DNA from: an uncultured Candidatus Saccharibacteria bacterium
GTDB lineage: Bacteria; Patescibacteriota; WWE3; UBA101185; UBA10185
DNA length: 64,000 bases
Assembly: GCA_964643995.1 (NCBI GenBank)
Contig: CAZXUJ010000001.1
Location: 337,492 to 401,491 of the forward strand
Direction of reading: 5' to 3'
The number at the start of each line of letters is the position of its first letter. The first letter of the stretch is position 1. A program made the translations under genes and the position numbers. Shown in pieces: positions 16,292 to 49,567 of the stretch. The notes under the pieces are model-generated. The model was not told the DNA's origin. It was given only the letters and a program-made list of their open reading frames with translations, and did no database searches.

Positions 16292-16729
16292 ATGAAAATG
16301 ATCATTCTCTTTCTTTTAGCAGCAATGTTAACAACACCTCAAACATATGCTAGTGAGATAAAAATTGGCATAAAAAAAAATGTCATGAATTTTGATAACG
16401 AGATTTTCACTAGCGTCGCAGGCGAATTTGAAACAAACAGATATGTTATCAGGCCAATAGAGGAACGCGGCGTATATATAGAAGTGTATGACGGAAACAA
16501 AAACATATGGGAGTCTAACTCAAGCTTATGGAATGAACAGGTACTTATAGAAAACATGAAAAAGATAAAATTTCGTGATAAACCTGACGAGATGTTTAGA
16601 GTTTATTTTGAATTACTTGATCTTAAGACTAGCAACAAATACGTTTCAACAAAGATACCAATTTTTTCCAACAAAGAGGAGATTAACTTCTTGAACGCAC
16701 TTAACCAAAACCTCAAAAACTCTGATTGA
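16292..16729 (+). CDS. Hypothetical secreted protein
   Basis: Signal-peptide-like N-terminus MKMIILFLLAAMLTTPQTYASE; no family assigned. Confidence 0.4.
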   Translation: MKMIILFLLAAMLTTPQTYASEIKIGIKKNVMNFDNEIFTSVAGEFETNRYVIRPIEERGVYIEVYDGNKNIWESNSSLWNEQVLIENMKKIKFRDKPDEMFRVYFELLDLKTSNKYVSTKIPIFSNKEEINFLNALNQNLKNSD

Positions 16730-16748
16730 AAAATGTTAAAATCAAAAC

Positions 16749-17108
16749 ATGAAGTGGGCTCCAGCAATAGTAATGTGCGTCATAATATTTGCAATTTCCT
16801 CGATACATGGAAACACAGTTAATAGTATAGGTTTGGGGAGAGAGAGCTATCATATTAATGGACACTTTGTTTTGTACATGTTGTTATGTATAGGGTTTTT
16901 CAAGGCCACGAAAATTTATATAGGGGCAACGGTTCTCTCTGGGTTATATGCGCTGAGTGACGAGTTTCATCAAACTTTCGTGCCTGGAAGATCTTGGGAG
17001 AACTTTGACCTTATGGTAGATGGTTTAGGAATAGCATTAGCTATAGTAATAGTATGGAAAATAATACATACACAATCGAACAAGTTAAAAAATTGGCTAC
17101 TGAGTTAG
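16749..17108 (+). CDS. VanZ-like family membrane protein
   Basis: SDEFHQTFVPGRS motif, characteristic of VanZ, between hydrophobic helices. Confidence 0.55.
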   Translation: MKWAPAIVMCVIIFAISSIHGNTVNSIGLGRESYHINGHFVLYMLLCIGFFKATKIYIGATVLSGLYALSDEFHQTFVPGRSWENFDLMVDGLGIALAIVIVWKIIHTQSNKLKNWLLS

Positions 17109-17497
17109 CTAGAGACATAAGACCTCAGGATGTGTTAGCGCTGTATGGTGATTTAGGAAGTGGAAAAACAACTTTTACGAATTATTTGGTGCAAGCACTT
17201 GGTTTCAAAGATCGGGTGCAAAGCCCAACATTTGTACTTTTACGTAGATATACAGAGACACCCGAAAGTAACGAGAACAATATACACGTAATTAACCACC
17301 TAGATCTGTATCGACTGAATGACAGTGGTGACCTTCATGAGCTCGGACTTAACGAGATAGTTGAGGAGCCTGCTACAATAACAATAATTGAGTGGCCAGG
17401 TATAGCAGAAAATTTGCTATCAAAAAACACAAAAAAAATATTTTTTGAGTACATAGATGAAAAAACAAGAAAAATCAAAATACATAATAAAAATTAA
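17054..17497 (+). CDS. tsaE: tRNA threonylcarbamoyladenosine biosynthesis ATPase TsaE (YjeE)
   Basis: LALYGDLGSGKTTFTNYL P-loop and SPTFVL motif; about 147 aa. Confidence 0.75.
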   Translation: MENNTYTIEQVKKLATELARDIRPQDVLALYGDLGSGKTTFTNYLVQALGFKDRVQSPTFVLLRRYTETPESNENNIHVINHLDLYRLNDSGDLHELGLNEIVEEPATITIIEWPGIAENLLSKNTKKIFFEYIDEKTRKIKIHNKN

Positions 17498-17798
17498 CAC
17501 TATAGAGAGGCATATAAAAGTGATAGAACTTGTTGAGATAAGTGAAGGAAAAGAACAGCTGATTGATAAGATAGAGGGTAATTTTGATGTGGTCAACGAA
17601 ATTAAAAAACTGCTAGTAAAAAATAAGCTTCGCCCTGAAAAAATATATGAGTATATTCCCAATGTTGGACCCGGAACCTCTTTCACGGGCACAAAAGTAG
17701 GAGTTACAGTCGCTAACGTAATCAACTGGGCATTGGGGAAAAAGAAGCTGGATGAACTTTACAACCCAATTTATATCTCAGAACCTAATATTGGTTAG
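17457..17798 (+). CDS. Hypothetical protein
   Basis: 113-aa ORF overlapping the tsaE 3' end; start uncertain; no family recognised. Confidence 0.3.
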   Translation: MKKQEKSKYIIKINTIERHIKVIELVEISEGKEQLIDKIEGNFDVVNEIKKLLVKNKLRPEKIYEYIPNVGPGTSFTGTKVGVTVANVINWALGKKKLDELYNPIYISEPNIG

Positions 17799-17822
17799 GA
17801 GATGTGGTAAAATGTCGTTGCT

Positions 17823-18791
17823 ATGAAAGTTTTAGTTACTGGAGCTGCAGGCTTTATAGGCTCAAACCTTTGTGAATATCTACTATCTAATAATCACGAG
17901 GTTATAGGTCTGGATAATTTTAACAACTATTACAGTCCAAAAATAAAAGAATATAACATAAAGAGCTTCTCAACAGATAAACACTTTAAGCTGTATAGAA
18001 ATGATTTACTGGATAATGACACCTTAACTACGTTATTTGAAGATGAAAAACCCGAGGCTATAGTACATTTAGCCGCATGGGCAGGTGTTACCAGGTCATT
18101 AAAGGAACCGGTTACCTACGTAAGAAACAATCTCGAAGCCACAGTTAATTTAGCTGAGTTAGCGGTAAAATATGGAATTAAAAGCTTCGTGCTAGCATCT
18201 ACCTCATCGATATATGGCGATAATCCAACACCTTTCACTGAAGACATGACCACAGATCATCCTCTAGCACCCTACCCTGCTACAAAAAAAGCATGTGAAG
18301 TTATGCTGAGTACCTACCATAGAAATTTTGGATTAAATGTCACAATATTTAGAATTTTTAATCCTTTAGGACCAAGACAAAGACCCGATTTAGCACTATC
18401 TATACTAATAAGGTCTTGCTTATATGAGGACGTGGCTTTTCATAAATACCAAACAGGTACTGGGCGAGACTATACATATGTAAAACACATGCTAGAGGCC
18501 ATGGAACATGTAATAAAAAAGCCTTTAGGGTATGAAATTCTAAACTTGGGTAATTCGAAACCAGTAATCCTCGAGGACATGATTGCTACTATAGCCAAAG
18601 TTACTGGGAAAGAACCTCGCATAATCGAAGCTGAAAAACGTCAGGGCGAGATGGAACTTACCTATGCCAACGTCGAAAAAGCTAAAAATATGATAAACTA
18701 CAACCCGTCTACGACCATTGAAGAAAGTATTAGAATTTATTATGAATGGTTTCTTGCCCAAGAAGAGTGGTATAAGAAAGGACAATATTAA
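17823..18791 (+). CDS. NAD-dependent nucleotide-sugar epimerase/dehydratase (SDR family)
   Basis: VLVTGAAGFIGSNLCEYLL Rossmann motif; Y..K active-site pair (YPATKKACE). Confidence 0.8.
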   Translation: MKVLVTGAAGFIGSNLCEYLLSNNHEVIGLDNFNNYYSPKIKEYNIKSFSTDKHFKLYRNDLLDNDTLTTLFEDEKPEAIVHLAAWAGVTRSLKEPVTYVRNNLEATVNLAELAVKYGIKSFVLASTSSIYGDNPTPFTEDMTTDHPLAPYPATKKACEVMLSTYHRNFGLNVTIFRIFNPLGPRQRPDLALSILIRSCLYEDVAFHKYQTGTGRDYTYVKHMLEAMEHVIKKPLGYEILNLGNSKPVILEDMIATIAKVTGKEPRIIEAEKRQGEMELTYANVEKAKNMINYNPSTTIEESIRIYYEWFLAQEEWYKKGQY

Positions 18792-19768
18792 TGTCAGAAA
18801 ATAAACACAGAAAACTAGTCTCTATTGTACTTCCTTGTTATAACGAGGAAAAAAACATAAACAGGATGTTTGATCAGATAGCGGATGTTATGAAAAATCA
18901 TGCCTACGATTACGAAATCATTGCAGTAAACGACGGTAGTAAGGACAACACATGGAATGTTATCAGTGAGTATTCAGCAAAAGATTCAAAAATAGTAGGT
19001 ATAAATCTGATGGGAAATTTTGGACAGAGCAGTGCATACATGGCTGGATTTGATAATGCCTCGGGTGACTATGTTATAACCTTTAATGCTGATTTAGAGC
19101 TTCCAACAGAAAGTTTGATCCAGGTAATAAATTACCTGGATCAAGGGTATGATTTTGTAAACGCACATAGGACAGATCGATGGAGTGCGGAAAAAGCTGC
19201 AAGACAAGTGAAAAGCGGTTATGCCAATAAAATAATTACTGCTATATCGGGAATCGATATGAAAGATCGAGGGTCAGGGCTCAAAGGTTACAAAAAATAC
19301 CTTTTACAAAATCTTAGATTGTACGGAGAAATGCACCGATTTATACCCGATTATCTCTCGGTGTATAGACCAAAAATGATCGAGTTCGAAGTTAAGTTCA
19401 AAGATCGTGACTACGGAGAATCTGCATATAAAGGCAACAAGAGAACCATTAAAGTTTTACTAGACTTGATAACATTGGCATTTATGCTTTCATTTGCACA
19501 TAAGCCATTCAAAATGATGCCAGGGAGGCTTTTTAGTTTTACGGGGGCTTTAATCTCTGGAGCCGGATTTTTAGGACTAGGGTACCTTACTATATTGAAG
19601 TTGATGGGAGAAAGTATCGGGGGGAGACCTTTGTTGATACTCTCGGCGCTGTTGGTAATAGTCGGTATTCAGTCAGTAATGATGGGCTTAATTGGCGAAC
19701 TTATGATGAGAACTTACTTTGAAGCATCCGGTAGAAAAACTTACGCAATAAGAGAAAAAACCAACTAA
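18791..19768 (+). CDS. GT2 polyprenyl-phosphate glycosyltransferase (GtrB/DPM1-like) with C-terminal TM helices
   Basis: LVSIVLPCYNEEKNI, a DGS.D motif (NDGSKDNT), and two C-terminal hydrophobic helices. Start overlaps the epimerase stop (ATGT...). Confidence 0.7.
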   Translation: MSENKHRKLVSIVLPCYNEEKNINRMFDQIADVMKNHAYDYEIIAVNDGSKDNTWNVISEYSAKDSKIVGINLMGNFGQSSAYMAGFDNASGDYVITFNADLELPTESLIQVINYLDQGYDFVNAHRTDRWSAEKAARQVKSGYANKIITAISGIDMKDRGSGLKGYKKYLLQNLRLYGEMHRFIPDYLSVYRPKMIEFEVKFKDRDYGESAYKGNKRTIKVLLDLITLAFMLSFAHKPFKMMPGRLFSFTGALISGAGFLGLGYLTILKLMGESIGGRPLLILSALLVIVGIQSVMMGLIGELMMRTYFEASGRKTYAIREKTN

Positions 19769-19776
19769 AGTCCTTG

Positions 19777-19989
19777 TTACAAAAGCTTATTTTTAAAGAA
19801 TATATAGAGAAATACTACTGAAGCTACTACTGTAACAAACAAAAGCCACAAGTAAGTAAAAGCTGGAGAATTACATTTCCAAGCCTCCTGAATATCAGGT
19901 GCGGCTTCGTGTATAGGACTGCGTAATTCTATACAGATATCTTGTTGCCACTGTGGCAATTTGTTTATGTAATTGTCTATTTTGTTCAT
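19777..19989 (-). CDS. Small membrane protein (hypothetical)
   Basis: 70 aa with a C-terminal hydrophobic helix; weak support. Confidence 0.25.
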   Translation of the reverse strand: MNKIDNYINKLPQWQQDICIELRSPIHEAAPDIQEAWKCNSPAFTYLWLLFVTVVASVVFLYIFFKNKLL

Positions 19990-33323: not shown

Positions 33324-34840
33324 AGGTTAGTTTTTAATCTCTTTAGACTTTCCTGAATTTCATATTCAATTTTTTCTAAATCCTCAATAATCCTCTTTGG
33401 TTCTTCATATTCCACGTCTTCATACTCAATCTCTTTATACCGATTTATTGAGAGGTCATAGTCATTTTCGCGGATTTCTTTGACTGGCACTACGAAAGAT
33501 TGATCGGTTCTTACCCTGGCTTCTTCATCTTTAAGATTATGATAGCGTTTGATGATATCGGGAGTGTTATTTTCCTCATGTTTTTCAAGATCAAGCTCTT
33601 GGCGTTTATCATCAAGCGAATACCCATCAGCCTTCATGTCATAAAACCAAACGTTATCAGTACCGCCTGAGTTGGTCTTTGTAAACAGAAGCACTGCAGT
33701 AGAAACACCCGCGTAAGGTTTGAATACACCAGATGGCATGGATATTACTCCTTGAAGCTGATGATCATCTATAAGAAGTTTTCTAATTGCCTTATGCGCA
33801 TTGGAGCTACCAAACAACACACCATCGGGAACAATTACTGCGGCACGGCCACCAGTTCTAAGTTGTTGGATAAATAATGCAATAAACAACAACTCAGTTT
33901 TCTTAGTTCGGACAATCTGCAATAAATCATTTGCTACCACTTCATAATCCAACGATCCTTTAAATGGAGGATTGGCTAGAATCACATCATATTTGTTTCT
34001 TGTTTCTGCTTGGCTTTGAGATAGTGCATCCTTGTCAGTCACGTTGGGGTTTTCGATACCGTGAAGCACTAAGTTCATCACAGCAATACGGATCATAGTA
34101 CGATCAAAGTCGTTGCCATAAAACATAGTGTTGTTGAAATGATCTCGCAATTTATCATCAGTAAATATTTCGGGATAGGTATCACGGACATATTCACTAG
34201 CTGCTACTAAAAATCCTCCAGTTCCACAAGCAGGATCCGCAATCTTGTCAGTTCGCTTTGGTTCCACCAACTCAACCATCATTTTAATAATGTGTCGTGG
34301 AGTTCTAAATTGACCGTTTCTACCTGCCGTCGCTATTTTTGAAAGTAAGTATTCGTACACATCTCCCTTGGTATCTCTGTCATGCATCTTGATTTCATTG
34401 AGCATGTTGACGACCTTGTCCAACAGGTTTGGGGTAGGAATCATGAAGGTTGCATCTTTCATGTATTGGGTATAGGTGTCCTCTGTTTTGCCATTTAGGT
34501 TTTTTATAAAGGGAAAAACATCCTCAGAAACAATCTCATACATCTTTTTGGGCTCAAGATCTTTAAACCTAGACCAACGCAGTTGTTGTTGATTATCAGA
34601 AAAGATTGGCTTAGTTATTTCAGTTTTTTGTGCGTTAGCCTTATTTTCACGCAGTGTGTGGATTTCATCTAAACGTTTAATAAAAAGGAGATATGTGATT
34701 TGTTCTATGACTGTTAGTGGATTAGAAATACCACCTGTCCAAAAAGCATCCCATACTCTGTCAATTTCTGTTTTTAATTTTCCTGTTAACATAAGGACAT
34801 TATAACTCGTGATTTTGTTGTAGTCCTGCAATTTATACAA
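33320..34840 (-). CDS. hsdM: Type I restriction-modification DNA methyltransferase subunit (N6-adenine)
   Basis: HsdM N-terminal domain, motif I DPACGTGGFL, motif IV ILANPPFKGS. The stop overlaps the hsdS start. Confidence 0.85.
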   Translation of the reverse strand: MYKLQDYNKITSYNVLMLTGKLKTEIDRVWDAFWTGGISNPLTVIEQITYLLFIKRLDEIHTLRENKANAQKTEITKPIFSDNQQQLRWSRFKDLEPKKMYEIVSEDVFPFIKNLNGKTEDTYTQYMKDATFMIPTPNLLDKVVNMLNEIKMHDRDTKGDVYEYLLSKIATAGRNGQFRTPRHIIKMMVELVEPKRTDKIADPACGTGGFLVAASEYVRDTYPEIFTDDKLRDHFNNTMFYGNDFDRTMIRIAVMNLVLHGIENPNVTDKDALSQSQAETRNKYDVILANPPFKGSLDYEVVANDLLQIVRTKKTELLFIALFIQQLRTGGRAAVIVPDGVLFGSSNAHKAIRKLLIDDHQLQGVISMPSGVFKPYAGVSTAVLLFTKTNSGGTDNVWFYDMKADGYSLDDKRQELDLEKHEENNTPDIIKRYHNLKDEEARVRTDQSFVVPVKEIRENDYDLSINRYKEIEYEDVEYEEPKRIIEDLEKIEYEIQESLKRLKTNL

Positions 34841-35054: not shown

Positions 35055-36374
35055 ATGAAAGAAGAATTAAAAATAATAAAAGTTAATATTAAGGACTTAA
35101 AAGTTGCAGATTATAACCCTCGAAAGTGGGATAAAACAAAAACTCAAAATTTAAAAGAAAGTATTGGAAAATTTGGGCTAGTTGATCCCTTGATTGTTAA
35201 TTCTGCACCAAGTAGAAATAATGTTGTAATTGGTGGCCATTTTCGCTTACAAGTTGTCAAAGAACTTGGCTATGCAGATGTACCAATTGTCTATTTAAAT
35301 ATTCCAGATATTGAAAAAGAAAAGGAATTGAATGTAAGGCTTAATAAGAATACAGGTGATTGGGATTACAAGTTGTTAGCCGAGTTTGACTCCTCCTTAC
35401 TAGATATTGTTGGTTTTAACAGTGAGGAGCTAGACGATATCTTTGGTTTAGACGAAACCCCAGAAGAGTTTAATCTGCAAAAAGAGTTAGAAAAATTAAA
35501 CATTCAAGAAATTTCTACAGTAGATGGTGATATCTATCAATTGGGTGAACATCGCCTAATGTGTGGTAATTCAACAATAGAAGATGATGTCCTAAAACTC
35601 ATGGACGGCGAAAAAGCGGATATGTGTTTTACAGACCCTCCATATATTCTCGACTATTTGAAAGGTAAAAAGAAAAGCGATAAGGGTTTTGGACTAAAGA
35701 AAAATAGAAGGTATTTAGGTACAGATTCATTGCCTGATGATTTCACTGAATTATGGATGTCAAACATCTCAAAAGTACAAAAGGATGACTTCTCAATCAT
35801 TGTTTTTGAGAATTGGAAAAACATAAGAACTATCTGGGATGCAATGGAAGATTACTGGAAAGTTAAAAACATGATTGTTTGGCATGTTCCAAATAGGACA
35901 CAGGGGTTTTCTGGAAAATACAGATTTTTCTCAAAGCATGATATTGCAATGGTTGGTGCGTCTCCAAATTCTGATATTCCTTTTAATCTAGAAGAAGAAA
36001 TTGAGGGTCTACAAAATGAGTATGAAACGGCACTATATGCAATTTCTGGTAAACCTCATTGGGAAAGTTATAAAAAGGGTAAAAAATACCAACCAACAGA
36101 TTATATTGATCATCCTGTAGATGATGCCAAACATTCAGGACAAGGTATCGTATTTGGTACGAAACCAATAGAAATATTAATTCCCTATATAAAAGTTTTA
36201 ACTAAAAGAAATGATTTAATAATTGAGCCTTTTGGTGGTAGTGGCTCTACTCTTATTGCCTCTACAAAGATGAAAAGAAGATGCTATGTGATGGAAAAAT
36301 CCCCCGTTTATGTAGAAATAATAAAACATAGATGGGAAAAATTGACTGGGCAGAAAGGGGTAAAAATACAATGA
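35055..36374 (+). CDS. ParB-like nuclease domain fused to DNA methyltransferase (phage-type orphan N6A/N4C MTase)
   Basis: N-terminal ParB/Srx fold (KVADYNPRKW..., GGHFRLQVVKELG). C-terminal MTase motifs DPPY (MCFTDPPY) and FGGSGST (IIEPFGGSGSTLIAS). Confidence 0.8.
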   Translation: MKEELKIIKVNIKDLKVADYNPRKWDKTKTQNLKESIGKFGLVDPLIVNSAPSRNNVVIGGHFRLQVVKELGYADVPIVYLNIPDIEKEKELNVRLNKNTGDWDYKLLAEFDSSLLDIVGFNSEELDDIFGLDETPEEFNLQKELEKLNIQEISTVDGDIYQLGEHRLMCGNSTIEDDVLKLMDGEKADMCFTDPPYILDYLKGKKKSDKGFGLKKNRRYLGTDSLPDDFTELWMSNISKVQKDDFSIIVFENWKNIRTIWDAMEDYWKVKNMIVWHVPNRTQGFSGKYRFFSKHDIAMVGASPNSDIPFNLEEEIEGLQNEYETALYAISGKPHWESYKKGKKYQPTDYIDHPVDDAKHSGQGIVFGTKPIEILIPYIKVLTKRNDLIIEPFGGSGSTLIASTKMKRRCYVMEKSPVYVEIIKHRWEKLTGQKGVKIQ

Positions 36375-36778
36375 GCAAATTAATTCAAAAAAGGCAAAAG
36401 CAAGAAAAAGAAGCATTAATAGAACAATTGAAGAAAACCCCAATAATACAAATGGCGTGCAAAAATGCAGGTGTTGGGAGAGCAACATACTATCGCTGGA
36501 GAAACCAAGATTACAAATTCGCACAAAAAGCAGATGAAGCATTAGAAATGAGTGTAAGTCTTATGAATGATTTAGCTGAGTCCCAGCTTATATCAGCAAT
36601 TAGAGACAAAAACATGACTGCAATAATCTTTTGGTTAAAACATAGGCATCAAGGTTATTCCACAAAAGTACTACTTTCTGGCTCCCTTGAGACCTCTATA
36701 AAGCTTTCTCCTGAACAACAGAAAGTATTTAAAAAAGCCGTACATTTAGTTTTTGGTGAGAATTCAGATGTCGAATAA
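36371..36778 (+). CDS. terS: Phage terminase small subunit (HTH-containing)
   Basis: HTH GVGRATYYRWRN and the IIFWLKHRH motif typical of small terminases. ATGA overlap with the upstream MTase; followed directly by terL. Confidence 0.6.
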   Translation: MSKLIQKRQKQEKEALIEQLKKTPIIQMACKNAGVGRATYYRWRNQDYKFAQKADEALEMSVSLMNDLAESQLISAIRDKNMTAIIFWLKHRHQGYSTKVLLSGSLETSIKLSPEQQKVFKKAVHLVFGENSDVE

Positions 36779-38324
36779 TACACGAAAAAAAGACTTAGAT
36801 ATTGTTTACGAAAGAATCCTAAGCGATAAAGCTTTTAGAATTAAGACTACTTCTGAGATGCACAAGTGGTTTTTTGTTACCTATTTTAGTGAATATGCAA
36901 AGTACAAGATTGCCCCTTTCCAAGAAGAAATGTTCAGATTAAGTGAATTGGATGATACTCCTCTAGTTGTTATCGAAGCGTTCAGGGGTTGTGGAAAGAC
37001 AACTATATTAGTTCTTTCGTACATCTTGTGGGCTGTTTTAGGTAGTCAGGGGAAAAAACACATCTTGATTGCTAGTCAAAGCTTAGATAAAGCAATGAGT
37101 ACCTTAAGAGATATAAAGACCATTCTTGAGACTAATAAATTGCTTATAGATGATTATGGGCCCTTTAGAATTCCTCCTGAACCTTGGAAAGAAAAATCGC
37201 TACACCTACCAAAGTATGATGCAAAAATAGTTCCTATTTCAGTGGAAGTAAGTCCAAGAGGCTATATACACAAAAGCAAAAGACCTGACTTAATAATTAT
37301 TGATGACCTCGAAAGTATAAATACCATAAATTCAGTTGAAATGAGAGATAAAGCGTTTAAATGGTACATGGAAGAAGTTGTTCCTAGTGGTGATGTGGAT
37401 ACAAAGATTGTAATAACAGGTAACTTTTTACATTCTGATTCTTTAATAAAACGCCTGCAAGTAATGATTGATAATGATGAGCTTGACGGCATTTATAGGC
37501 GGTATCCTTTTTATGATTCAGATAATAAACCTTTGTGGTTTAGTAAATTTCCTACATCTAAAGAAATCACCGCTTTAAAGAAAAAGGTTGGAAAAGATTC
37601 TTGGCTAAGAGAGTATCTGTTGGAGGATATTCCAGTCGGAACTAGCCCAATAACTAAAAACCTAATCAAGTATTACTCTGATTTACCTACTCAAAACATT
37701 GCCAAACAAATAAAACTACAGTATGTGGGTACGGGAGTTGACCTCGCTATATCCAAACAATCTACTGCACACTACACAGCTATGGTGTCCGTAAAGGTAT
37801 TTTATGTAGGTAACAAAGTTAATGTCTATATCCTTCCAAATCCTATAAACGCTAGATTAACTTTCCCAGAAGCATTCGATACTGTAAAAAGAGTTTCCAA
37901 AGCATTAGATCCAAATGGGGATGCAACCCCAATAATAGTTGAGACCATAGCTTATCAGGAGGCAATGGAACAGGCTCTAGTGCAGGAAACATTTCCTGTT
38001 AAAGGAATAAAACACAATTCGCTAGATAAAATGGCAAGATTAAGTTTAGTTGCAAATTTTATGGCAGACCATAATATCAATTTTCCAACGTCTGGTTCTG
38101 AATTGCTTATTTCTCAACTTTTAGGTTTTGGTAGTGAAAGATACGACGATCTTGCTGATGCTTTCACAATGATCATGACTGAAGTAATGGAAAGATGTAG
38201 TTTTAGACCATACAACTGGGATTACAAACCAAAGCCAGCACCCCCTTCTAAAAGTTTATTTAGTGACTTACATAGAGATATGTCTGATCCTGTAACAAAA
38301 GGACTAATAGACATGAAATTCTAA
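36753..38324 (+). CDS. terL: Phage terminase large subunit (ATPase + nuclease)
   Basis: Walker A-like FRGCGKTTIL, Walker B LIIIDDLE, and a C-terminal RNaseH-like nuclease region (GVDLAIS...DLADAF). Sits downstream of terS. Confidence 0.75.
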   Translation: MVRIQMSNNTRKKDLDIVYERILSDKAFRIKTTSEMHKWFFVTYFSEYAKYKIAPFQEEMFRLSELDDTPLVVIEAFRGCGKTTILVLSYILWAVLGSQGKKHILIASQSLDKAMSTLRDIKTILETNKLLIDDYGPFRIPPEPWKEKSLHLPKYDAKIVPISVEVSPRGYIHKSKRPDLIIIDDLESINTINSVEMRDKAFKWYMEEVVPSGDVDTKIVITGNFLHSDSLIKRLQVMIDNDELDGIYRRYPFYDSDNKPLWFSKFPTSKEITALKKKVGKDSWLREYLLEDIPVGTSPITKNLIKYYSDLPTQNIAKQIKLQYVGTGVDLAISKQSTAHYTAMVSVKVFYVGNKVNVYILPNPINARLTFPEAFDTVKRVSKALDPNGDATPIIVETIAYQEAMEQALVQETFPVKGIKHNSLDKMARLSLVANFMADHNINFPTSGSELLISQLLGFGSERYDDLADAFTMIMTEVMERCSFRPYNWDYKPKPAPPSKSLFSDLHRDMSDPVTKGLIDMKF

Positions 38325-40710: not shown

Positions 40711-42006
40711 ATGACTAAAGCAAAAGAAGAATTAAAATACTGTCTTTATGCTCGCAAAAGTTCGGAATCAGATGAACGGCAAGCACGTTCAATAGAATCT
40801 CAAATTAATGAAATGCAGGAACAAGCAAAGAAAGAAGGATTGAATATCGTAGAAGTTAAAAAAGAGTCGCACAGTGCAAAGATATCGGGGACACGACCTG
40901 TATTCTTGGAGATACTTAAAGAAATTAATTTAGAAAAATACAATGGGATTTTAGCTTGGTCACCAGACCGATTGAGTAGAAATGCAGGAGACTTAGGAAG
41001 TTTAGTAGATTTGATGGATAGAAAGAAACTTGTTCATATTAAAACTTATTCTCAATCTTTTACCAACAACCCAAACGAAAAGTTTTTACTTATGATTTTA
41101 TGTTCCCAAGCAAAGCTAGAGAATGACAACAGATCGCTACATGTTCAAAGAGGTATTAGAAACAAATGTGAAATGGGTTGGAGACCTTGCCCTGCACCTA
41201 TTGGCTATATTAATTACTCCCATGAAGGCACTAAAAAAGTGATGCTTGATAAAGAAGCAGCTCCCTATGTAAAGGAACTGTTTGAACTTGTAGCCCATGC
41301 AAACTATAGCGGAAGAGATTTAAGAGAACATCTAAAACAAGATAAAAATCTCCGACGACTAACTAACAAGAAAATATCTTTAAGTATGATTTATACAATA
41401 TTGAAAACGCCTTTTTATTACGGTGAATTCGAATATCCACAAGGAAGTGGGAAATGGTACAAAGGTGCTCACGAACCCATAATTGAAAAGTGGCTATTTG
41501 ATAAAGTGCAAAGGAAATTAGTCACTTCAAAAAAATCGAAATGGGGTTCAACTTTCTTTTTATTTAAGCATGTATTCAAGTGTGCTTATTGTGGAGCAAA
41601 CTTTGTTGGTGAAGAAAAACATAAAATGCTCAAAGGTGGAAAGAAAAGGACATATACATATTATCGCTGTTCCAGGCAAGTGGATCCGAACTGTGAGGAA
41701 CCGTATGTAAATGAAAATGAATTAATTGGTGAGTTAATCAATTATGTGGGATTGATAGAAAATAAGAGAGACTCAAACCTACATCTAAACAGTAAAATCA
41801 GAGGCAGAATGGATAAATTTACCAAGTTAAGAATGTCTTTACTTGAAGGAAAGAATATAAAAGTCCACGAAAAAGTAACATTTACGGAGTATTTCAAATA
41901 CATTATTTATAATGGAACTAAAGAAGAAAAACAGGAAGCAATTGAAACACTGAAACTACCGTTATTCATTCACAATAAGACTGTTTACACACATCCGTTA
42001 GGATAA
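40711..42006 (+). CDS. Large serine recombinase (resolvase/invertase catalytic domain + recombinase domain + zinc ribbon)
   Basis: N-terminal YARKSSESDERQARSIESQ with a catalytic Ser context and ...SPDRLSRN. A C-terminal Cys cluster (CAYCG ... CSRQVDPNC) forms a zinc-ribbon-like element. 431 aa. Confidence 0.8.
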   Translation: MTKAKEELKYCLYARKSSESDERQARSIESQINEMQEQAKKEGLNIVEVKKESHSAKISGTRPVFLEILKEINLEKYNGILAWSPDRLSRNAGDLGSLVDLMDRKKLVHIKTYSQSFTNNPNEKFLLMILCSQAKLENDNRSLHVQRGIRNKCEMGWRPCPAPIGYINYSHEGTKKVMLDKEAAPYVKELFELVAHANYSGRDLREHLKQDKNLRRLTNKKISLSMIYTILKTPFYYGEFEYPQGSGKWYKGAHEPIIEKWLFDKVQRKLVTSKKSKWGSTFFLFKHVFKCAYCGANFVGEEKHKMLKGGKKRTYTYYRCSRQVDPNCEEPYVNENELIGELINYVGLIENKRDSNLHLNSKIRGRMDKFTKLRMSLLEGKNIKVHEKVTFTEYFKYIIYNGTKEEKQEAIETLKLPLFIHNKTVYTHPLG

Positions 42007-43004: not shown

Positions 43005-43125
43005 ATGTTGTTGTAAACTAAACCAAATCAAGCAAAACAGCGGTTCGTGAGTTAAAAAATCAATAGGGGTTTTATCAAACCATTAACGGGTAATTTAAGC
43101 ATCATGGTCACAATGATGCCCATTC

Positions 43126-43202
43126 TGGTCGGGGTGACAGGACTCGAACCTGCGACCTCACGCACCCCATGCGTGCGCGCTAGCCAACTGCGCCACACCC
43201 CG
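43126..43202 (-). tRNA. tRNA-Pro (anticodon GGG)
   Basis: Minus-strand cloverleaf: acceptor CGGGGUG/CACCCCG, D-stem GCGC/GCGC, anticodon stem CACGC/GCGUG with loop AUGGGGU, T-loop UUCGAGU, discriminator A, and encoded CCA. Confidence 0.85.
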
Positions 43203-43258
43203 ACGTATTCGGCGGGATGGTAGTGATGTACTTATCACGTCACACCCCGACGTATTCG
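43194..43258. repeat. Direct repeat (18 bp x2) comprising the tRNA-Pro 5' end plus flank, bracketing a tRNA-5'-half-like hairpin mini-element
   Basis: CACACCCCGACGTATTCG occurs at 43194-43211 and again at 43241-43258. Between the copies the minus strand reads GUCGGGGUGUGACGUGAUAAGUACAUCACUACCAUCCC. Confidence 0.6.
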
Positions 43259-43332
43259 AACAGGTGAATAATACCATTTACATGACATCGCCAACCATAT
43301 ATGAAAAAATTAATGTATAGGAGGTGATAATA

Positions 43333-43779
43333 ATGGACGAAAATATACAGCAAACAACAACACCAGCTGCGCCTAAAGTTGAAATAATGTATGCAACTTT
43401 CATGCAAAGATTTCTAGCAGTATTGATTGATGCAGTACTTGTAGGATTAGTTGTTGGTGTCAGTGGAATTATTCTAAACCCAATATTTGGGGGCGAGGAT
43501 GGTATGTTTTACAACCCTCTTGGAATAGTGCTTGGACTTGGGTATGCGATATTCATGCTAACACAGTATGGGGCGACACTTGGAAAAAAGGCACTTGGCA
43601 TAAAGGTTGTTAAACAAGAAGTTGGCGAAAATCTTAATCCCGTAGACGCATTCTTGAGAGAGGTGGTCGGTAAGTGTTTATCGAGCTTTTTCTTGATAGG
43701 ATATCTTTGGATGCTTTGGGACCCAAACAAGCAGACATGGCATGACAAGATAGCAAAGAGTTTAGTTGTGAAAGCTTAA
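43333..43779 (+). CDS. RDD family membrane protein
   Basis: AGGAGGTGA RBS then ATG. RFLAVLIDAVLVGLVVG followed by hydrophobic helices is typical of the RDD domain. Confidence 0.6.
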   Translation: MDENIQQTTTPAAPKVEIMYATFMQRFLAVLIDAVLVGLVVGVSGIILNPIFGGEDGMFYNPLGIVLGLGYAIFMLTQYGATLGKKALGIKVVKQEVGENLNPVDAFLREVVGKCLSSFFLIGYLWMLWDPNKQTWHDKIAKSLVVKA

Positions 43780-44474
43780 GGTGTTTGTAAAACTACTGGA
43801 GGACGTTTAGTAAGCTTTAGATGGAATAAAGGTCTTTCCTGCCCAAAGCTAAGTTTTTTACTCCAAGTTGAATCGAAATTTTTTAAAGTCTCTTTTTGTA
43901 GAGGGCTTATGGTTACCTCCTGAAAACCTACATTCAGAAAATTTGGGACGACGTTAGCCTTAACATACTCTAGACTCAAATTTTCCAAACCCAATCTGTC
44001 AACTTCGGTTGGTTCTGTTTCCTGCGCATAACCAAACAATATTTCTAGCTCGCCATTCTCTTTCAGTAAGTCATACAACTTTTTTGGTGCCTCAGAATCA
44101 GGCAACACTATAGAACTAAGCAGAGAACCCCAAGGCAATATAACCGTTACTTTGGTGGCGAGACCATAGAGCTCCTCAGGCAATAGCTCGATAGAACCTA
44201 AAACAAATAAACAATTATTAACTTTTGTTTTAACAGCTTTTTTGGAATATTTTTCTAGTTGTGCCTGGCTCGGATCTACACCAATAAAAAGGCCATCTTG
44301 GGTTTTGATAGCATTCTTAAAAACAAAACGACCATCACCGGTACCAATATCAATATGGACAGTATTAAATTTTTGGGTTAACTCGGCGAGATCGAGCCTT
44401 GTGATATCGCGAGTTGAACTACCTAGAATCAGTCGCATTGTTGTTATTATAGCCTTTTCAGCTAAAATAATCAT
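43776..44474 (-). CDS. Class I SAM-dependent methyltransferase, NpmA/KamB (16S rRNA m1A1408) family-like
   Basis: VHIDIGTGDGRFVFKNAI...FIGVDP, ILPWGSLL and WSKKLSFGQERPLFHL parallel the HIDLGTGDG / FPWGTLL / WAKRL.FGR blocks recalled for Kmr-family aminoglycoside-resistance methyltransferases. Comparison is from memory only. Confidence 0.5.
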   Translation of the reverse strand: MIILAEKAIITTMRLILGSSTRDITRLDLAELTQKFNTVHIDIGTGDGRFVFKNAIKTQDGLFIGVDPSQAQLEKYSKKAVKTKVNNCLFVLGSIELLPEELYGLATKVTVILPWGSLLSSIVLPDSEAPKKLYDLLKENGELEILFGYAQETEPTEVDRLGLENLSLEYVKANVVPNFLNVGFQEVTISPLQKETLKNFDSTWSKKLSFGQERPLFHLKLTKRPPVVLQTP

Positions 44475-45914
44475 ATGATCCTCGGAAAACGTGTGAATAA
44501 AACATATTTTTGTGAACCCGTTCTAAAAGAGCTGGAGTTCAAAATTGGCAATAATAAGAAGATTGGGATTGTTGGAAAAAACGGTTGTGGGAAAACCACA
44601 CTCTTAAAACTTATTGCAGGAGAAGAATCTACTACTGAAGGAACAATTGAAATTCAGAGTGAAATTGTAGGTTATATTCCACAAGAGCTGGAATTTTCAA
44701 AGGGTTTGGTAGGCGAATTACTTGAAGAAAGTCTAGAGGGGCATTGGGAATTTTACAAAGCTGAGATCCTGGTTAGCCAACTGAACTATGAAAACTTTGA
44801 TGCTTACCAGGAAATAAAAACGTTGAGTGAGGGTCAGAAAATGAAATTAAAATTAATTGAGACACTTCTTAAGGAGCCCACAGTGCTACTTATTGATGAG
44901 CCAACCAATCATTTAGATATTGAGGGCATTCATTGGTTTGAAGATTACATTAAAAATCTACACAAGACGGTAGTTATGATTTCACACGATAGAACATTTT
45001 TGAACAATACCGTAGATGAAATCTGGGAGATAGAAAATGGTTCAATAATAAGATTTGTAGGTGACTATGATAACTACAAAGGCGAAAAACTTAAATTGAT
45101 AGATAAGTGGGACCAGGAGTATGTACTATTTTTAAAGCATAAAGCAAAGCTTGAAAGACTACTCGACAATGCCAGAAAAATAAAGGGGGATAAACGAGGA
45201 AGAGCTGTGAAAGCTGCTAAGAAGAGAATTGACAGAGAAGTCACACAAAACAGCAAAGAAAAGTATTCCACCAAAATAATCAAGAATGTCGAATTTGATA
45301 CCGATACTAGAAAAAGCAAGCTCATGGTACGGTTTGACCACATCACTAAAGATTATGGCGAAAAAAATGTTTTTACAGACTTATCTTTTGAAGTGCGAGG
45401 CAAAGAAAAAGTTTGGTTATTTGGTCCAAATGGTGGTGGAAAAAGCACCATGGTAAAAATGATTATGGGCGAAGAACAGCCTACTGCAGGAAACATAACC
45501 ATTGGTGACAACATACGAGTAGGGTACTTTGCACAAAAACAAACTCACCTAGATTATGATAAAAGCCTGCTAGATCATTTTATTGAAAAAACGGGATGCA
45601 AGTACGATAAAGCATTTGGAATGCTGGACAAATTCTTGTTTGATAAGGATGCGGTAAAAAAACGTGTGCGTAATTTAAGTCCGGGGGAACGTGCTAGATT
45701 TGCATTTGCAATATTTGCATATGAGGATTACGACATGTTGATTTTGGATGAACCGACAAATCATCTGGATATTGATACCAAAGAAGTCATCGAGAAAAGT
45801 TTATCAAAGTACGAAGGAACGCTTCTTTTGGTCTCACATGATAGATATTTTGTTGAAAGTGTTGGTGTAGGAAAGCTGTTAAATCTACGGGAAGGAACTT
45901 TGGAAATACTTTAG
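44475..45914 (+). CDS. ABC-F family ATPase (tandem ABC domains, no TMD)
   Basis: Two Walker A sites (GKNGCGKTT, GPNGGGKST), two ABC signatures (LSEGQKMK, LSPGERAR), and an inter-domain linker with a basic helix. Confidence 0.8.
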   Translation: MILGKRVNKTYFCEPVLKELEFKIGNNKKIGIVGKNGCGKTTLLKLIAGEESTTEGTIEIQSEIVGYIPQELEFSKGLVGELLEESLEGHWEFYKAEILVSQLNYENFDAYQEIKTLSEGQKMKLKLIETLLKEPTVLLIDEPTNHLDIEGIHWFEDYIKNLHKTVVMISHDRTFLNNTVDEIWEIENGSIIRFVGDYDNYKGEKLKLIDKWDQEYVLFLKHKAKLERLLDNARKIKGDKRGRAVKAAKKRIDREVTQNSKEKYSTKIIKNVEFDTDTRKSKLMVRFDHITKDYGEKNVFTDLSFEVRGKEKVWLFGPNGGGKSTMVKMIMGEEQPTAGNITIGDNIRVGYFAQKQTHLDYDKSLLDHFIEKTGCKYDKAFGMLDKFLFDKDAVKKRVRNLSPGERARFAFAIFAYEDYDMLILDEPTNHLDIDTKEVIEKSLSKYEGTLLLVSHDRYFVESVGVGKLLNLREGTLEIL

Positions 45915-45916
45915 AA

Positions 45917-46717
45917 ATGCTTGAAAACGAAATTCCCAGAATCATTCCCATTTGGAAACCTGTTGGTGAATCAACTCACAGGATTGCTAAAAGTGTTTCT
46001 GAGGTTTACAACATCCTCTCGTCTCATACAGGAACATTAGACCCAATGGCAGAAGGTGTAATTGTTGTGCTAATCGACGAAACAAGGTTAAGAAAATATG
46101 AATATGCCAAGTGGAAAAAAACTTATGAATTTGACATTGTTTTGGGATTAAAATCCGACTCTTTAGACGGTCTTGGTATAGTAGAGATTGTAGAAAATAA
46201 GCAAACATTCAATTTCAAAAAACTTGAAAAAGTTTTGGATAGCATGCAAGGCGCATACACACAAAAAATACCTAACTACTCAGCTATTAAAGTAAAAGGT
46301 AAAGAACTTCATTGGTGGGCAAGAAATAACAGGCTAAGTGAAATAGAAATTCCAACAAGATCTGGTGAAATAGATGACCTGAAACTTATGGAGATAACAC
46401 AGACGAGGTTTGGAGAAATTGCTTTGCAGACAATAAAGGACATTAGGTTAGTAGATGGGGACTTGCGGCAAGATTTAGCAATAGCCTGTTGGAAAAATAT
46501 AGAAAATAAATACGGAGGTGAAAAAACAACAAAATTCAAGCTTAGGGTTCAAATGTCCAAAGGGTTATACGTAAGACAGCTAACTCAAGATATATTGGGT
46601 ATGATTGGATTGATAGGGATCACTTTAAACATAAAACGTACACAAAACGGAAAGTACGCTCAAAACAACTGCTACACGTTGAGTCAAATAATTCCAATAA
46701 CCAGGCCTCACAAATAA
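45917..46717 (+). CDS. truB: tRNA pseudouridine(55) synthase TruB-like
   Basis: HTGTLDPMAEGVIVVLI, the catalytic Asp motif of TruB-family pseudouridine synthases. Confidence 0.65.
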   Translation: MLENEIPRIIPIWKPVGESTHRIAKSVSEVYNILSSHTGTLDPMAEGVIVVLIDETRLRKYEYAKWKKTYEFDIVLGLKSDSLDGLGIVEIVENKQTFNFKKLEKVLDSMQGAYTQKIPNYSAIKVKGKELHWWARNNRLSEIEIPTRSGEIDDLKLMEITQTRFGEIALQTIKDIRLVDGDLRQDLAIACWKNIENKYGGEKTTKFKLRVQMSKGLYVRQLTQDILGMIGLIGITLNIKRTQNGKYAQNNCYTLSQIIPITRPHK

Positions 46718-46743
46718 TCGCCGGAGGCGAGAGATAAAATTTT

Positions 46744-49062
46744 CTAATCTCTCGCTCCTGGCCATTCGCTAATTATCAAAGGTTTTTCGTTAGGCAATAA
46801 ATTCAACCATATTTCTTCAGTCACAAAAGGCATAAATGGATGAAGCAACTTCAAAGATGTCAAATATAAGTGACGTAAAACCGGTAAGGCTACCTGTTTA
46901 TCCTCACGATTCTTTACATTTTCAATATAACTAGACGCCATGTCATCCCACATGAAATGATATATATCCTCCCCCGCTTGTGCGAATCTGTATTTTTCAA
47001 GGTTTTCGTTTGTTGAAATGATTAGAGAATTCATTTTGCTAAGCATTTCCCGATCAATGTCTTTGAGGGAATCAGTATCCAATCCGTTGAAGCTACAAAG
47101 AGTATTTCCAGTATCTTTTTGGTATGACTCCTCCATTAAACCCATGAATCTAGCCATATTCCAGATCTTATTTGCAAAATTCCTATAGCCTAAAACCTTA
47201 TCATGCGGAAACGCAAAGTCTTTACCACCAGCAGTACCAGATATTAAGCCCATACGTAAGGCATCCGCACCAAATTCACTTACATAGTCCAAAGGGTCAA
47301 CTTGATTACCCAAGCTTTTGCTCATTTTTCGACCATCCGATGCACGAACCAAACCATGTAAATAAACATCACTAAACGGTGGTTTACCTGTTAAGTAAAT
47401 GCCAAACATAATCATTCTTGAAACCCAAAAGCGGAGTATTTCCCAGCCGGTTTCCAATACTGCCGTAGGATAAAAGTAGTTAAAATCGGCACTGTCGGGA
47501 TAACCCAAAGTAACGAGCGGCCAATGCCCAGAAGAAAACCAAGTATCGAAGGTGTCTGTTTCTGGAAGCCACCTACCTGGCGTTTCAGGCTCTTTGTCAC
47601 TTATTTCGTACAAAATTTCGTCTTCAGATTTCTCCCATAAAGGAACCCGCAATTGTTGTAAACCTGATTTAATCTCGTCAAAAGGGAATTCCTTTAATAA
47701 ATCTTCAAGAGAGCCATTAAGTTGCCTACCATCTTTAGCAACAAAACTAAGAGTTACTAAAGACTCATGACCTTGTACGTTATACCAAACCGGAATACGT
47801 ATACCCCATACAATCTGACGACTAATCGGCCAATCATGCATTTCCTCCATCCAACGATGATATTTTGTTTCTTGCCACTCGGGATAGATCTTAACCTCAC
47901 CATTTTTTACAACATTAAGCGCCGGTTGTTTCAGGGATTTTTCTGGATGGTCCACACGAACAAACCAGTTAGGTAAGATAAGATTTTCAATTTGATTTTT
48001 GCATTTATAGCAAGTCGCAACAGAATGCTGGTACTTTTCATTAATATTTTCTTTTTTTAACAAACCCTTTGCAATTAGTATTTCTACAGCCTTAGCACGG
48101 GCTTGTTTAGCATATAAACCATCAAATCCAAGTTCGGTAGGAGAATTTATCATTTTTCCGTCAACGCCCACTGCAGTCATCAAGGGGAGTTTATGACGTT
48201 TAGCAGCTTCATAATCGTTCTTATCATGGGCTGGTGTTAACTTAACCACGCCGGTCCCAAACTCTGGGTCCACGAATGAATCAGCAATAATGGTCATCGA
48301 TGCCCCCGTAAGAGGGTTTTCAAGTTGGCGACCAATAAGCCACTTTTTACTTTCATCATCTGGGTTAACTGCTAAATGTGTGTCAACATAAATTGGCTCA
48401 GGTCGGGTGGTCGCAACTTGCACAAATTCTGGTTCATTAGAATGGCTATCCAGTAAGACGTAATCAATATAGTAAAGCGGGGTGTTTTTATCTGTATACT
48501 CTATTTCAAGATCTGAAAGGGTTGTTCCGCAGTGTGTACAGTAGTTAACCATATACTCACCTCGGTAAACTAACTCATCAGCATGCATCTTTTTGAAGGT
48601 TTTATGCACAGTCTGGATGACATCATCGTCTAAAGTGAATTTTTTACGCGACCAGTCGAGACTTGGGCCTAGGCTTCTAACCTGAGCATATATCACGTCA
48701 CCCTGCTCACGCACAAAATCATAGACCATGTTGTACAATGTTTTGCGGTCATAGTCCATCCTAGACTTACCTTCTTTTTTTAAATTTTTTTCAAAAACTG
48801 ACTGAGTCTCAAAACCCGCATGATCAGTTCCTGGTACCCACAAAGCAGAATAACCCTGCATTCTTTTCCAACGAATCAACAAGTCCTCGATTGCAATCAT
48901 CAAAGCATGCCCAACATGTAATTTACCGTTTGAGTTAGGTGGTGGCAAAACTATGGTATAGGACTTTTTAGCTGGGTCAGTTTTCGGAGTAAAATAACCA
49001 CCCTCTTCCCATAGATCGTAGATTTTTGGTTCTATTTCTTTGTGATTGTATGTTTTATTCAT
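46744..49062 (-). CDS. valS: Valyl-tRNA synthetase (C-terminally short form)
   Basis: PPPNSNGKLHVGHAL (HIGH region) and KMSKSLGN; class I editing synthetase layout. 772 aa, so it lacks the long C-terminal coiled coil. Confidence 0.8.
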   Translation of the reverse strand: MNKTYNHKEIEPKIYDLWEEGGYFTPKTDPAKKSYTIVLPPPNSNGKLHVGHALMIAIEDLLIRWKRMQGYSALWVPGTDHAGFETQSVFEKNLKKEGKSRMDYDRKTLYNMVYDFVREQGDVIYAQVRSLGPSLDWSRKKFTLDDDVIQTVHKTFKKMHADELVYRGEYMVNYCTHCGTTLSDLEIEYTDKNTPLYYIDYVLLDSHSNEPEFVQVATTRPEPIYVDTHLAVNPDDESKKWLIGRQLENPLTGASMTIIADSFVDPEFGTGVVKLTPAHDKNDYEAAKRHKLPLMTAVGVDGKMINSPTELGFDGLYAKQARAKAVEILIAKGLLKKENINEKYQHSVATCYKCKNQIENLILPNWFVRVDHPEKSLKQPALNVVKNGEVKIYPEWQETKYHRWMEEMHDWPISRQIVWGIRIPVWYNVQGHESLVTLSFVAKDGRQLNGSLEDLLKEFPFDEIKSGLQQLRVPLWEKSEDEILYEISDKEPETPGRWLPETDTFDTWFSSGHWPLVTLGYPDSADFNYFYPTAVLETGWEILRFWVSRMIMFGIYLTGKPPFSDVYLHGLVRASDGRKMSKSLGNQVDPLDYVSEFGADALRMGLISGTAGGKDFAFPHDKVLGYRNFANKIWNMARFMGLMEESYQKDTGNTLCSFNGLDTDSLKDIDREMLSKMNSLIISTNENLEKYRFAQAGEDIYHFMWDDMASSYIENVKNREDKQVALPVLRHLYLTSLKLLHPFMPFVTEEIWLNLLPNEKPLIISEWPGARD

Positions 49063-49070
49063 AATTTTCC

Positions 49071-49307
49071 TTATTCCTCAACTTCTCCATCTACTGGCTT
49101 GGCTTCATTATCAAACGTAAACTTTCCTTCAGTTTTTTTCCTTTTGTAGTAATCAAGAATCATTGTTACAACCAAAAGCAAGTCCTCAGTGTAGCCCAAA
49201 GGCATTAACACATCAGGAATTAAATCAATAGGTGAAATAACGTAAACAACTACTAGAATTAACTTCCAATGCCTTTTTATAAAACTTTTTAGTTTCACTA
49301 AATTCAT
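49071..49307 (-). CDS. DUF1232 (YkvA-like) small membrane protein
   Basis: ISPIDLIPDVLMPLGYTEDLL motif. AAGGGAG RBS lies 8 nt before the chosen ATG. Confidence 0.5.
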   Translation of the reverse strand: MNLVKLKSFIKRHWKLILVVVYVISPIDLIPDVLMPLGYTEDLLLVVTMILDYYKRKKTEGKFTFDNEAKPVDGEVEE

Positions 49308-49322
49308 AAAAAATGCTCCCTT

Positions 49323-49355
49323 AAAAACAAAAAAACCTCTCACAACAGAGAGGTT
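49323..49355 (-). terminator. Intrinsic terminator/attenuator hairpin immediately upstream of the DUF1232 gene
   Basis: The minus strand reads GGAACCUCUC-uguugu-GAGAGGUU followed by UUUUUUUGUUUUU. It lies 12 nt before the RBS of the downstream gene. Confidence 0.55.
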
Positions 49356-49567
49356 CCATAATTAAATGGAAGGTACCAACCTTCAAACATACTTATTTAC
49401 AGCTGTAACGGGCATTCCCGACGGAGTCTAGCAATAAGGCGCACCTTATGTTCTTTCCGCAGCTCGCTTGGTGACATTACTTCCAAGCTCAACGCTTTTT
49501 TGACTTATTTGCAATTTTATACATAATAGCGATTGTTTGCAAATATCACGTATGAGGAGGCTTGGTC

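Follow-up and report, generated by a model that had tools for sequence, protein, structure and literature searches.

A chromosomal NpmA-family 16S rRNA methyltransferase gene and a minimal ABC-F gene lie back to back in a sub-lineage of Patescibacteria

Gene layout of the locus

The DNA analysed here is a 64,000-nucleotide stretch (the window; positions 337,492 to 401,491 of contig CAZXUJ010000001.1, GenBank assembly GCA_964643995.1) from an uncultured Candidatus Saccharibacteria bacterium, and our subject is a pair of divergent genes within it, one coding for a methyltransferase related to the aminoglycoside-resistance enzymes NpmA and KamB, the other for an ATPase of the ABC-F family. A first-pass annotation, made from the sequence alone, had described divergently adjacent open reading frames (ORFs) of 232 and 479 aa, and the ORF listing bore this out (Table 1), with the two start codons touching (CAT followed directly by ATG). 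The methyltransferase itself probably starts at M13 of its ORF (position 44438), giving a protein of 220 aa and leaving an intergenic gap of 36 bp, because its homologues, as well as the alignments with PDB entry 7jlz and NpmA, all begin there and because the preceding 36 nt resemble the non-coding promoter region of the relative L087 (L and P numbers are our handles for the relatives compared); the first 12 codons of the ORF are probably untranslated.

Table 1. Positions in the window of the gene pair, its neighbours, the genes of the adjoining island and the genes under a peak of GC content
Feature	Position	Strand	Evidence
Predicted Kam/NpmA-family 16S rRNA (adenine1408-N1) methyltransferase, 'UncKam-like' clade of the candidate phyla radiation (CPR)	43776..44474	-	Pfam, PDB, AlphaFold2 (AF2) model, dN/dS
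AT-rich gap from the probable methyltransferase start (M13) to the ABC-F start	44439..44474	.	Sequence
Minimal ABC-F ATPase: first nucleotide-binding domain (NBD1) lacking the arm insert, then a linker of 82 aa forming a helical hairpin, then NBD2 as the last domain	44475..45914	+	NF000355, architecture, clade
TruB (tRNA pseudouridine-55 synthase)	45917..46717	+	Pfam TruB_N 99 bits, TIGR00431
RDD-family membrane protein	43324..43779	+	Pfam RDD 90 bits
Valyl-tRNA synthetase (ValRS)	46744..49062	-	Pfam tRNA-synt_1 410 bits
tRNA-Pro(GGG)	43126..43202	-	ARAGORN, Rfam
HamB, type I Hachiman system	23488-26034		
HamA, type I Hachiman system	26034-26954		
HsdR, type I restriction-modification	28110-31502		
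DUF6602/PD-DExK protein, type I restriction-modification	31499-32152		
HsdS, type I restriction-modification	32145-33323		
HsdM, type I restriction-modification	33320-34840		
ParB-fused DNA methylase	35055-36374		
Phage terminase, small subunit	36332-36778		
Phage terminase, large subunit	36753-38324		
Large serine integrase (recombinase)	40711-42006		
257-aa ORF	9974-10747		
YceG-like gene	10891-11964		

The methyltransferase: family, key residues and predicted chemistry

Profile searches, structure comparison and a map of key residues all agreed with the proposal in the annotation that the methyltransferase shares the hallmarks of the NpmA/KamB family, whose members methylate N1 of A1408 in 16S rRNA (m1A1408). 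The protein matched Pfam PF24675 (NpmA) with 176.1 bits (cutoff 60; E=7.7e-52) over profile positions 2-211 of 214, and it matched ten m1A1408 methyltransferase sequences in PDB, among them 7jlz (UncKam; 5.6e-62 by phmmer), NpmA 3mte (2.5e-38), NpmB1 7ehf (7.7e-34), KamB 3mq2 (4.9e-13), Kmr and CacKam; the next-best PDB matches were TrmB enzymes, with E > 0.05. An AF2 model built with 28 homologues (mean predicted local distance difference test score, pLDDT, 91.9) has the class I S-adenosylmethionine (SAM) methyltransferase fold, its core preceded by the family-specific N-terminal β-hairpin extension (strands 12-17 and 20-25), and the 19 top Foldseek matches of this model in PDB were all m1A1408 methyltransferases, with template modelling (TM) scores of 0.84/0.88 to NpmA 3mte. 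The NCBIfam allele cutoffs of the named resistance genes were all missed (NpmA, 129 vs 470 bits; NpmB, 123 vs 460; WarA, 97 vs 305; KamB, 65 vs 350). By its sequence, the protein is a member of the Kam/NpmA family, not an allele of a named resistance determinant.

The closest solved relative, UncKam (PDB 7JLZ, deposited as '30S ribosomal A1408 methyltransferase from an uncultured bacterium'), is ~47-50% identical and collinear over 211 residues; it has the same key residues and the same β2/3 linker, shorter by four residues than that of NpmA, whereas about half of the residues differ. UncKam is 86% identical to the methyltransferases of L007 (4947-5579) and L008 (5001-5633), which lie in a CPR-type gene order (UppS, PMT_2, an ORF of ~122 aa, methyltransferase) without an ABC-F neighbour, so that UncKam very probably comes from the same Patescibacteria clade. 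Our literature search found no publication on the activity of UncKam. NpmA and NpmB1, the acquired pan-aminoglycoside-resistance m1A1408 methyltransferases, share with our protein the Pfam family, the fold (TM 0.84-0.88) and the key residues, but they are only ~33-36% identical to it and are plasmid- or transposon-borne, unlike the present gene, which is chromosomal and appears to be vertically inherited in CPR. KamB, Kmr and CacKam, intrinsic to producers and other environmental bacteria, are likewise chromosomal and of the same family and fold; they are more distant (KamB, 22% identity by structural alignment), their hosts are Actinomycetota or Myxococcota, and, unlike the producers with KamB-type enzymes, the organism of the window gave no sign of aminoglycoside production. 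Earlier work had already described NpmA-like genes in CPR (two studies) and solved the structure of UncKam; what is added here is their context of synteny, selection and architecture.

The roles of the key NpmA residues, including those of W197, R207 and E146 in handling the target base, have been described (PMC4705659), and these positions could be mapped onto the methyltransferase as follows: D30 to D42, D55 to D67, E88 to E96, P106/W107 to P114/W115, E146 to E154, S195 to S202, W197 to W204 and R207 to R214. In the alignment of 28 homologues these residues are invariant or nearly so, with the exception of S202 and of the lysines in the linker; W115, E154, W204 and R214 are invariant. The β2/3 linker, which in NpmA serves in docking on 30S together with the β5/6 arginine R153, is basic (K78, K79, K82 and K84), but NpmA K71 aligns with T83. 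By homology, the methyltransferase should methylate A1408 N1 on assembled 30S subunits. By analogy with the NpmA-30S complex, it would dock on helix 44 of the assembled subunit through the four linker lysines; R214 would flip A1408 out, with E154 in support, W204 (NpmA W197) would position the flipped base, next to the conserved W115 (NpmA W107), and SAM, bound by D42, D67, E96 and S202, would donate its methyl group to N1. The organism's own ribosomes would then carry m1A1408 constitutively and would have an intrinsic insensitivity to aminoglycosides of the kanamycin and apramycin type, be this the selected benefit or not.

The methyltransferase: selection, distribution and chromosomal site

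The ratio of nonsynonymous to synonymous substitution rates (dN/dS) of the methyltransferase gene, measured against the 92%-identical relative L002, was 0.049, as compared with 0.119 for TruB and 0.151 for the RDD gene in the same block; a pseudogene or decaying gene is ruled out by a value of 0.05. Its GC content (0.378 vs 0.368 for the window) and its GC content at third codon positions (GC3) are native. An exhaustive HMMER scan of 1.84 billion cluster representatives retrieved no more than 419 clusters at E<=1e-10, of which 43 reached E<=1e-30, so that on sequence evidence the family is small and patchy, and the closest relatives (39-54% identity) lie on CPR-type contigs. Some family members are longer (330-509 aa; P0264, P0285, P0271, P0281 and P0295), with the NpmA-like domain at one end, fused to a second domain. 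A human-gut metagenome contig (L026, 2449-3084; ENA OUNI01002766) encodes a product 99.5% identical to clinical NpmA, which formed the outgroup in the tree.

When the flanking ORFs at 19 CPR-clade methyltransferase loci were clustered, UppS was found upstream of the methyltransferase at 14, whereas the leftward genes between the two varied: none at five loci, a coiled-coil ORF of ~122 aa at three, TruB at four and ABC-F at six, with L104 adding a seventh lineage with ABC-F. Such a conserved chromosomal slot reads as the signature of long vertical inheritance and not of a mobile resistance gene. In addition, a conserved lysine- and glutamate-rich ORF of ~120 aa (cluster C3), with no recorded Pfam family, stands beside the methyltransferase, ABC-F or TruB at eight of the 19 loci (L090, 2916-3278; L091, 2280-2636; L005, 5579-5938; and others); an ORF of 121 aa at the same position in L104 (2523-2888) was left out of the clustering, and the window has no such ORF.

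The ABC-F protein: family, architecture and conservation

The ABC-F ORF contains two ABC_tran domains (Pfam, 173.5 bits) with intact Walker A, Walker B, signature and H-loop motifs and lacks a transmembrane domain. The annotation had placed it in the family that contains the antibiotic-resistance (ARE) ribosomal protection factors. Family membership stands, with 436 bits against a cutoff of 380 for NCBIfam NF000355 ('ribosomal protection-like ABC-F family protein'), whereas the reading as a resistance factor finds no support beyond this general label. Neither profile nor tree assigned the protein to a named ARE subfamily: the models for Vga (297 vs 725 bits), Msr (266 vs 680), Lsa (228 vs 750), Sal (282 vs 725), OptrA (240 vs 1450), CplR (267 vs 780) and the producer type (247 vs 800) were all missed, as were those for the housekeeping proteins EttA (285 vs 599) and Uup (299 vs 900).

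We aligned the protein with PoxtA, OptrA, Msr(D), Vga(A), EttA, Uup, YbiT, YheS and an Enterococcus 'ribosomal protection-like' protein. Its NBD1 core, of 108 aa vs 141-155 in the references, lacks the arm insert; its tail, of 55 aa vs 87-171 in EttA/Uup, has no C-terminal extension; and its linker, of 82 aa, is close to those of EttA, Uup, YbiT, YheS and OptrA (75-79, with OptrA at 79) and of PoxtA (83), as compared with 107 in Vga(A) and 111 in Msr(D). In a neighbour-joining (NJ) tree the CPR proteins formed a monophyletic clade (bootstrap 100/100), 27-34% identical to every reference, which answers in part the question, raised by the annotation, of a placement against EttA and the ARE clades: the clade lies outside both, and its sister group was not settled by the tree (PoxtA in 33/100 replicates, Uup in 21/100). 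The AF2 model (pLDDT 84.5) shows a helical hairpin in the linker (198-234 and 239-257). Foldseek ranked PoxtA, VmlR2, Uup, YbiT and EttA almost equally, with PoxtA first, and drew no line between ARE and housekeeping ABC-F proteins.

Likenesses to both groups were found in the comparison with known systems. PoxtA and OptrA have linkers of similar length, and PoxtA is the best ARE match in both sequence and fold; the two are 30-33% identical to our protein, keep the ~40-aa NBD1 insert and longer C-termini, and are carried on mobile elements, whereas the present one is a core gene found throughout the phylum. EttA, Uup, YbiT and YheS resemble it in having two intact NBDs and a hairpin of similar length, like the motif for interaction with P-site tRNA (PtIM), and in being highly conserved and chromosomal, and Uup is its best PDB sequence match (5.4e-72); their NBD1 cores, of 141-149 aa, carry the arm insert, whereas our protein, which also lacks the C-terminal domain, falls into a clade of its own. 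Loss of the arm and short linkers occur in resistance and non-resistance ABC-F subfamilies, arm loss being typical of ARE1/ARE2 (Murina et al., PMC6723617), and architecture alone can therefore not decide the function. The extended linker (antibiotic-resistance domain, ARD) that reaches the drug site, a trait of ARE1-3 and Msr but not universal, is absent from the 82-aa linker.

Conservation and gene context say more. The 120 clusters of orthologues listed were all 61-90% identical and 457-537 aa long (about 480), and the named ones were from Patescibacteria; across the phylum the identities run at 61-72%. Within the same genomes its conservation also exceeded that of ValRS, with identities of 93 vs 87% in L002, 69 vs 59% on the L104 contig, 64 vs 60% on a WWE3 contig and 61 vs 57% on a 1.1-Mb contig. 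Only 2 nt separate the ABC-F stop from the TruB start, and the two genes are probably co-transcribed. In several ARE ABC-F genes, expression is governed by a leader peptide or an attenuator. The space upstream of the present gene is 0-36 bp in the window and 25, 26, 26, 57 and 149 bp in relatives (0-149 bp in the seven lineages with this gene arrangement), and an attenuator leader of the size seen in some ARE ABC-F genes would not fit in the gaps of 0-57 bp found in six of the seven. Because of its phylum-wide spread, its extreme conservation, the TruB junction and the scant upstream space, the protein is most likely a housekeeping translation factor and not a dedicated inducible antibiotic-resistance ABC-F, and the hedge in the annotation that these might simply be housekeeping factors is, for the ABC-F protein, the better supported half of its reading, given the phylum-wide and very conserved clade, the short linker, the lack of room for an attenuator and the absence of a match to any named ARE subfamily. 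In a housekeeping role it would act at the E site, its short helical hairpin extending towards P-site tRNA and the peptidyl-transferase centre so as to relieve stalling.

The methyltransferase/ABC-F pairing

The divergent junction of the two genes was found in seven lineages (the window, L002, L087, L089, L090, L091 and L104), with a gap of 0-57 bp and, once, of 149 bp, and the most similar ABC-F proteins (68-72% identity) share contigs with methyltransferase homologues. Among 80 JGI metagenome loci and three look-ups, ABC-F stood beside the methyltransferase only in near-identical relatives, but contigs common to both homologue lists added the more diverged L087, L089, L090, L091 and L104, and the pairing is therefore not confined to near-identical relatives. 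Across the paired lineages the methyltransferases have diverged to 43-53% identity and the ABC-F proteins to 63-76%, and the divergences of the two are correlated (r=0.82).

The pairing is not general. At 12 other CPR loci ABC-F is not beside the methyltransferase, the upstream neighbour being UppS, TruB or the ~122-aa ORF; L005, L007 and L008 match L090, L091 and L104 in layout except that the ABC-F gene is missing; and no methyltransferase lies within 5 kb of the more distant ABC-F orthologues P0130, P0138 and P0240 (61-68% identity). Of the two, the ABC-F clade has by far the wider distribution. ABC-F-adjacent methyltransferases were not monophyletic in the NJ tree (0/200 replicates), so that a single origin of the arrangement is not established.

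The gap contains two -10-like boxes, a TATAAT 7 nt before M13 on the minus strand and, on the plus strand, a TAAAAT whose end is 6 nt from the ABC-F ATG. TATAAT also precedes the methyltransferase ATG in relatives, by 7 nt in L090 (4784-4840) and by 10 nt in L087 (3592-3740), a spacing that suggests a leaderless or near-leaderless mRNA. In the promoter/terminator scan, promoter-like matches in the region were not above the shuffled expectation (10 vs 11.6), and no conserved intergenic motif was evident in the upstream regions compared across relatives.

Neighbouring genes and the adjoining island

The RDD gene is convergent with the methyltransferase gene, their 3' ends overlapping by 4 bp, and adjoins it also in L002, L089 and L090; in other CPR lineages (L010, L012, L013 and L017) it is TruB that stands divergently next to the methyltransferase. 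ValRS belongs to the core syntenic block common to L002 and L104, and its named relatives ('valine--tRNA ligase', 57-60% identity) come from WWE3 and Woesebacteria. For ValRS, ABC-F and the methyltransferase alike, the best named relatives come from Patescibacteria (WWE3, Woesebacteria, Saccharimonadales and 'Patescibacteria group'), so that the genome is a Patescibacteria/CPR chromosome, near WWE3 and Woesebacteria. The GC content of the window is low throughout (0.37), and its housekeeping genes include those for FtsE/X, YceG, prolyl-tRNA synthetase (ProRS), TsaD, ValRS and TruB. ARAGORN and Rfam found three tRNAs as the only RNA genes in the 64-kb window, with no 16S rRNA gene. A GC peak of 0.444 at 10001-12000 covers the 257-aa ORF and the YceG-like gene; the former had no Pfam match, and no rRNA was found at the peak.

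The relative L002 is collinear with the window over 43120..49418 (tRNA-Pro, RDD, methyltransferase, ABC-F, TruB and ValRS), and collinearity resumes at 19865..16427; the ~22 kb between the collinear blocks are an insertion ending at tRNA-Pro(GGG), with the gene pair outside it. We ruled out the pair as a mobile cassette by this collinearity. Among the genes on the stretch absent from L002 (~21400-43120) are those of type I Hachiman and type I restriction-modification systems, a ParB-fused DNA methylase, both phage terminase subunits and a large serine integrase (Table 1), and the whole has the look of a CPR defence island of phage origin. A search of the island's far side for a direct repeat of att type matching the end of tRNA-Pro returned chance 10-12-mers only.

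Interpretation

The simplest reading of the pair is a real, lineage-restricted synteny in a neighbourhood of translation and RNA modification (an ABC-F-TruB operon, ValRS and RDD). We think it fairly probable that these are two independently functioning, inherited genes of the translation apparatus, an active methyltransferase and a housekeeping ABC-F protein, which stand back to back by synteny in one sub-lineage of Patescibacteria and do not form a mobile cassette.

Several observations weigh against this reading. For the methyltransferase, the β2/3 linker is four residues shorter than that of NpmA, and NpmA R153 has no direct equivalent (L161 in our protein, with the conserved R160 adjacent). 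A different CPR npmA-like gene, expressed in Escherichia coli BL21, caused no change in aminoglycoside minimum inhibitory concentration (MIC), the kind of outcome that the annotation had named as refuting its reading, according to a preprint (10.64898/2026.07.13.738296) that also argues that fermentative CPR cells would take up aminoglycosides poorly; we give the null MIC result little weight because the text of the preprint mentions no check of expression or rRNA methylation (SDS-PAGE, Western blot, primer extension or mass spectrometry). For the ABC-F protein, the modelled architecture would be compatible with a resistance role, PoxtA and OptrA being short-linker AREs and PoxtA the top structural match; in addition, one cultivated Saccharibacterium has two longer ABC-F paralogues, and therefore the 480-aa protein is not necessarily the sole or an essential ABC-F in such genomes. 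Finally, the junction persists at 43-53% methyltransferase identity while the outer neighbours change, and is thus steadier than random synteny predicts.

The last point also speaks for the 'ribosome-protection pair' of the annotation, which here would be a functional, co-regulated pair with a short shared control region, protecting the 30S decoding centre and the 50S catalytic centre from antibiotics of the host or of neighbours. The m1A1408 modification is made on the 30S subunit and acts against aminoglycosides, whereas the drugs countered by known ARE ABC-Fs are those aimed at the peptidyl-transferase centre or exit tunnel of the 50S subunit (PMC6723617). The back-to-back order kept in seven lineages, despite methyltransferase divergence and the turnover of outer neighbours, would fit such a pair, as would the ABC-F score above the NF000355 cutoff and the rank of PoxtA as best fold match; the correlation of divergences (r=0.82) is what co-inheritance predicts, but shared vertical descent alone would also give it. 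The pairing is, however, missing at 12 methyltransferase loci, which have other upstream neighbours, and at three ABC-F loci, which lack the methyltransferase; L005, L007 and L008 lack ABC-F; the ABC-F clade is much wider in spread; no conserved intergenic motif is evident; and no known mechanism joins m1A1408 to ABC-F action. We regard a protective pair as unlikely. Slightly less likely still is a version in which m1A1408 is native and constitutive and the methyltransferase and the minimal ABC-F, long kept head to head because they are co-expressed from a short shared bidirectional (possibly leaderless) region, would serve as a ribosome-hardening unit for epibionts living among antibiotic producers.

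The methyltransferase might also not be a resistance determinant at all, m1A1408 or another RNA methylation having a native role in the ribosome and aminoglycoside insensitivity being irrelevant or absent. Vertical inheritance at a conserved site amid TruB and ValRS, the very strong purifying selection, and the unchanged MIC and poor-uptake argument of the preprint would all agree with this, but most of the residues by which NpmA recognizes A1408 and catalyses its methylation are kept, 7JLZ was deposited as an A1408 methyltransferase, the small and patchy family (419 clusters at E<=1e-10 in 1.84 billion) fits an accessory role more readily than a universal one, and the preprint text, as noted, mentions no expression or methylation check; we consider a purely native role improbable. 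A recent arrival of the pair as cargo of the island next to it is very hard to credit: the serine recombinase and tRNA-Pro lie within 2-3 kb and the ~22 kb to the left are absent from L002, but the collinearity with L002 includes the pair, its GC and GC3 are native, and six other lineages have the same pair, with no recombinase gene called in the fetched flanks of their loci.

If the methyltransferase is active, as the reading of two independent inherited genes supposes, m1A1408 would be an inherited, strongly selected feature of the ribosome in a subset of CPR and not an acquired resistance, which would bear on the origin of NpmA-type enzymes, on how 'resistance genes' in CPR are read and on the needs of the reduced CPR ribosome. 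The ABC-F clade, naturally minimal and more conserved than ValRS, could serve as a model of core ABC-F function.

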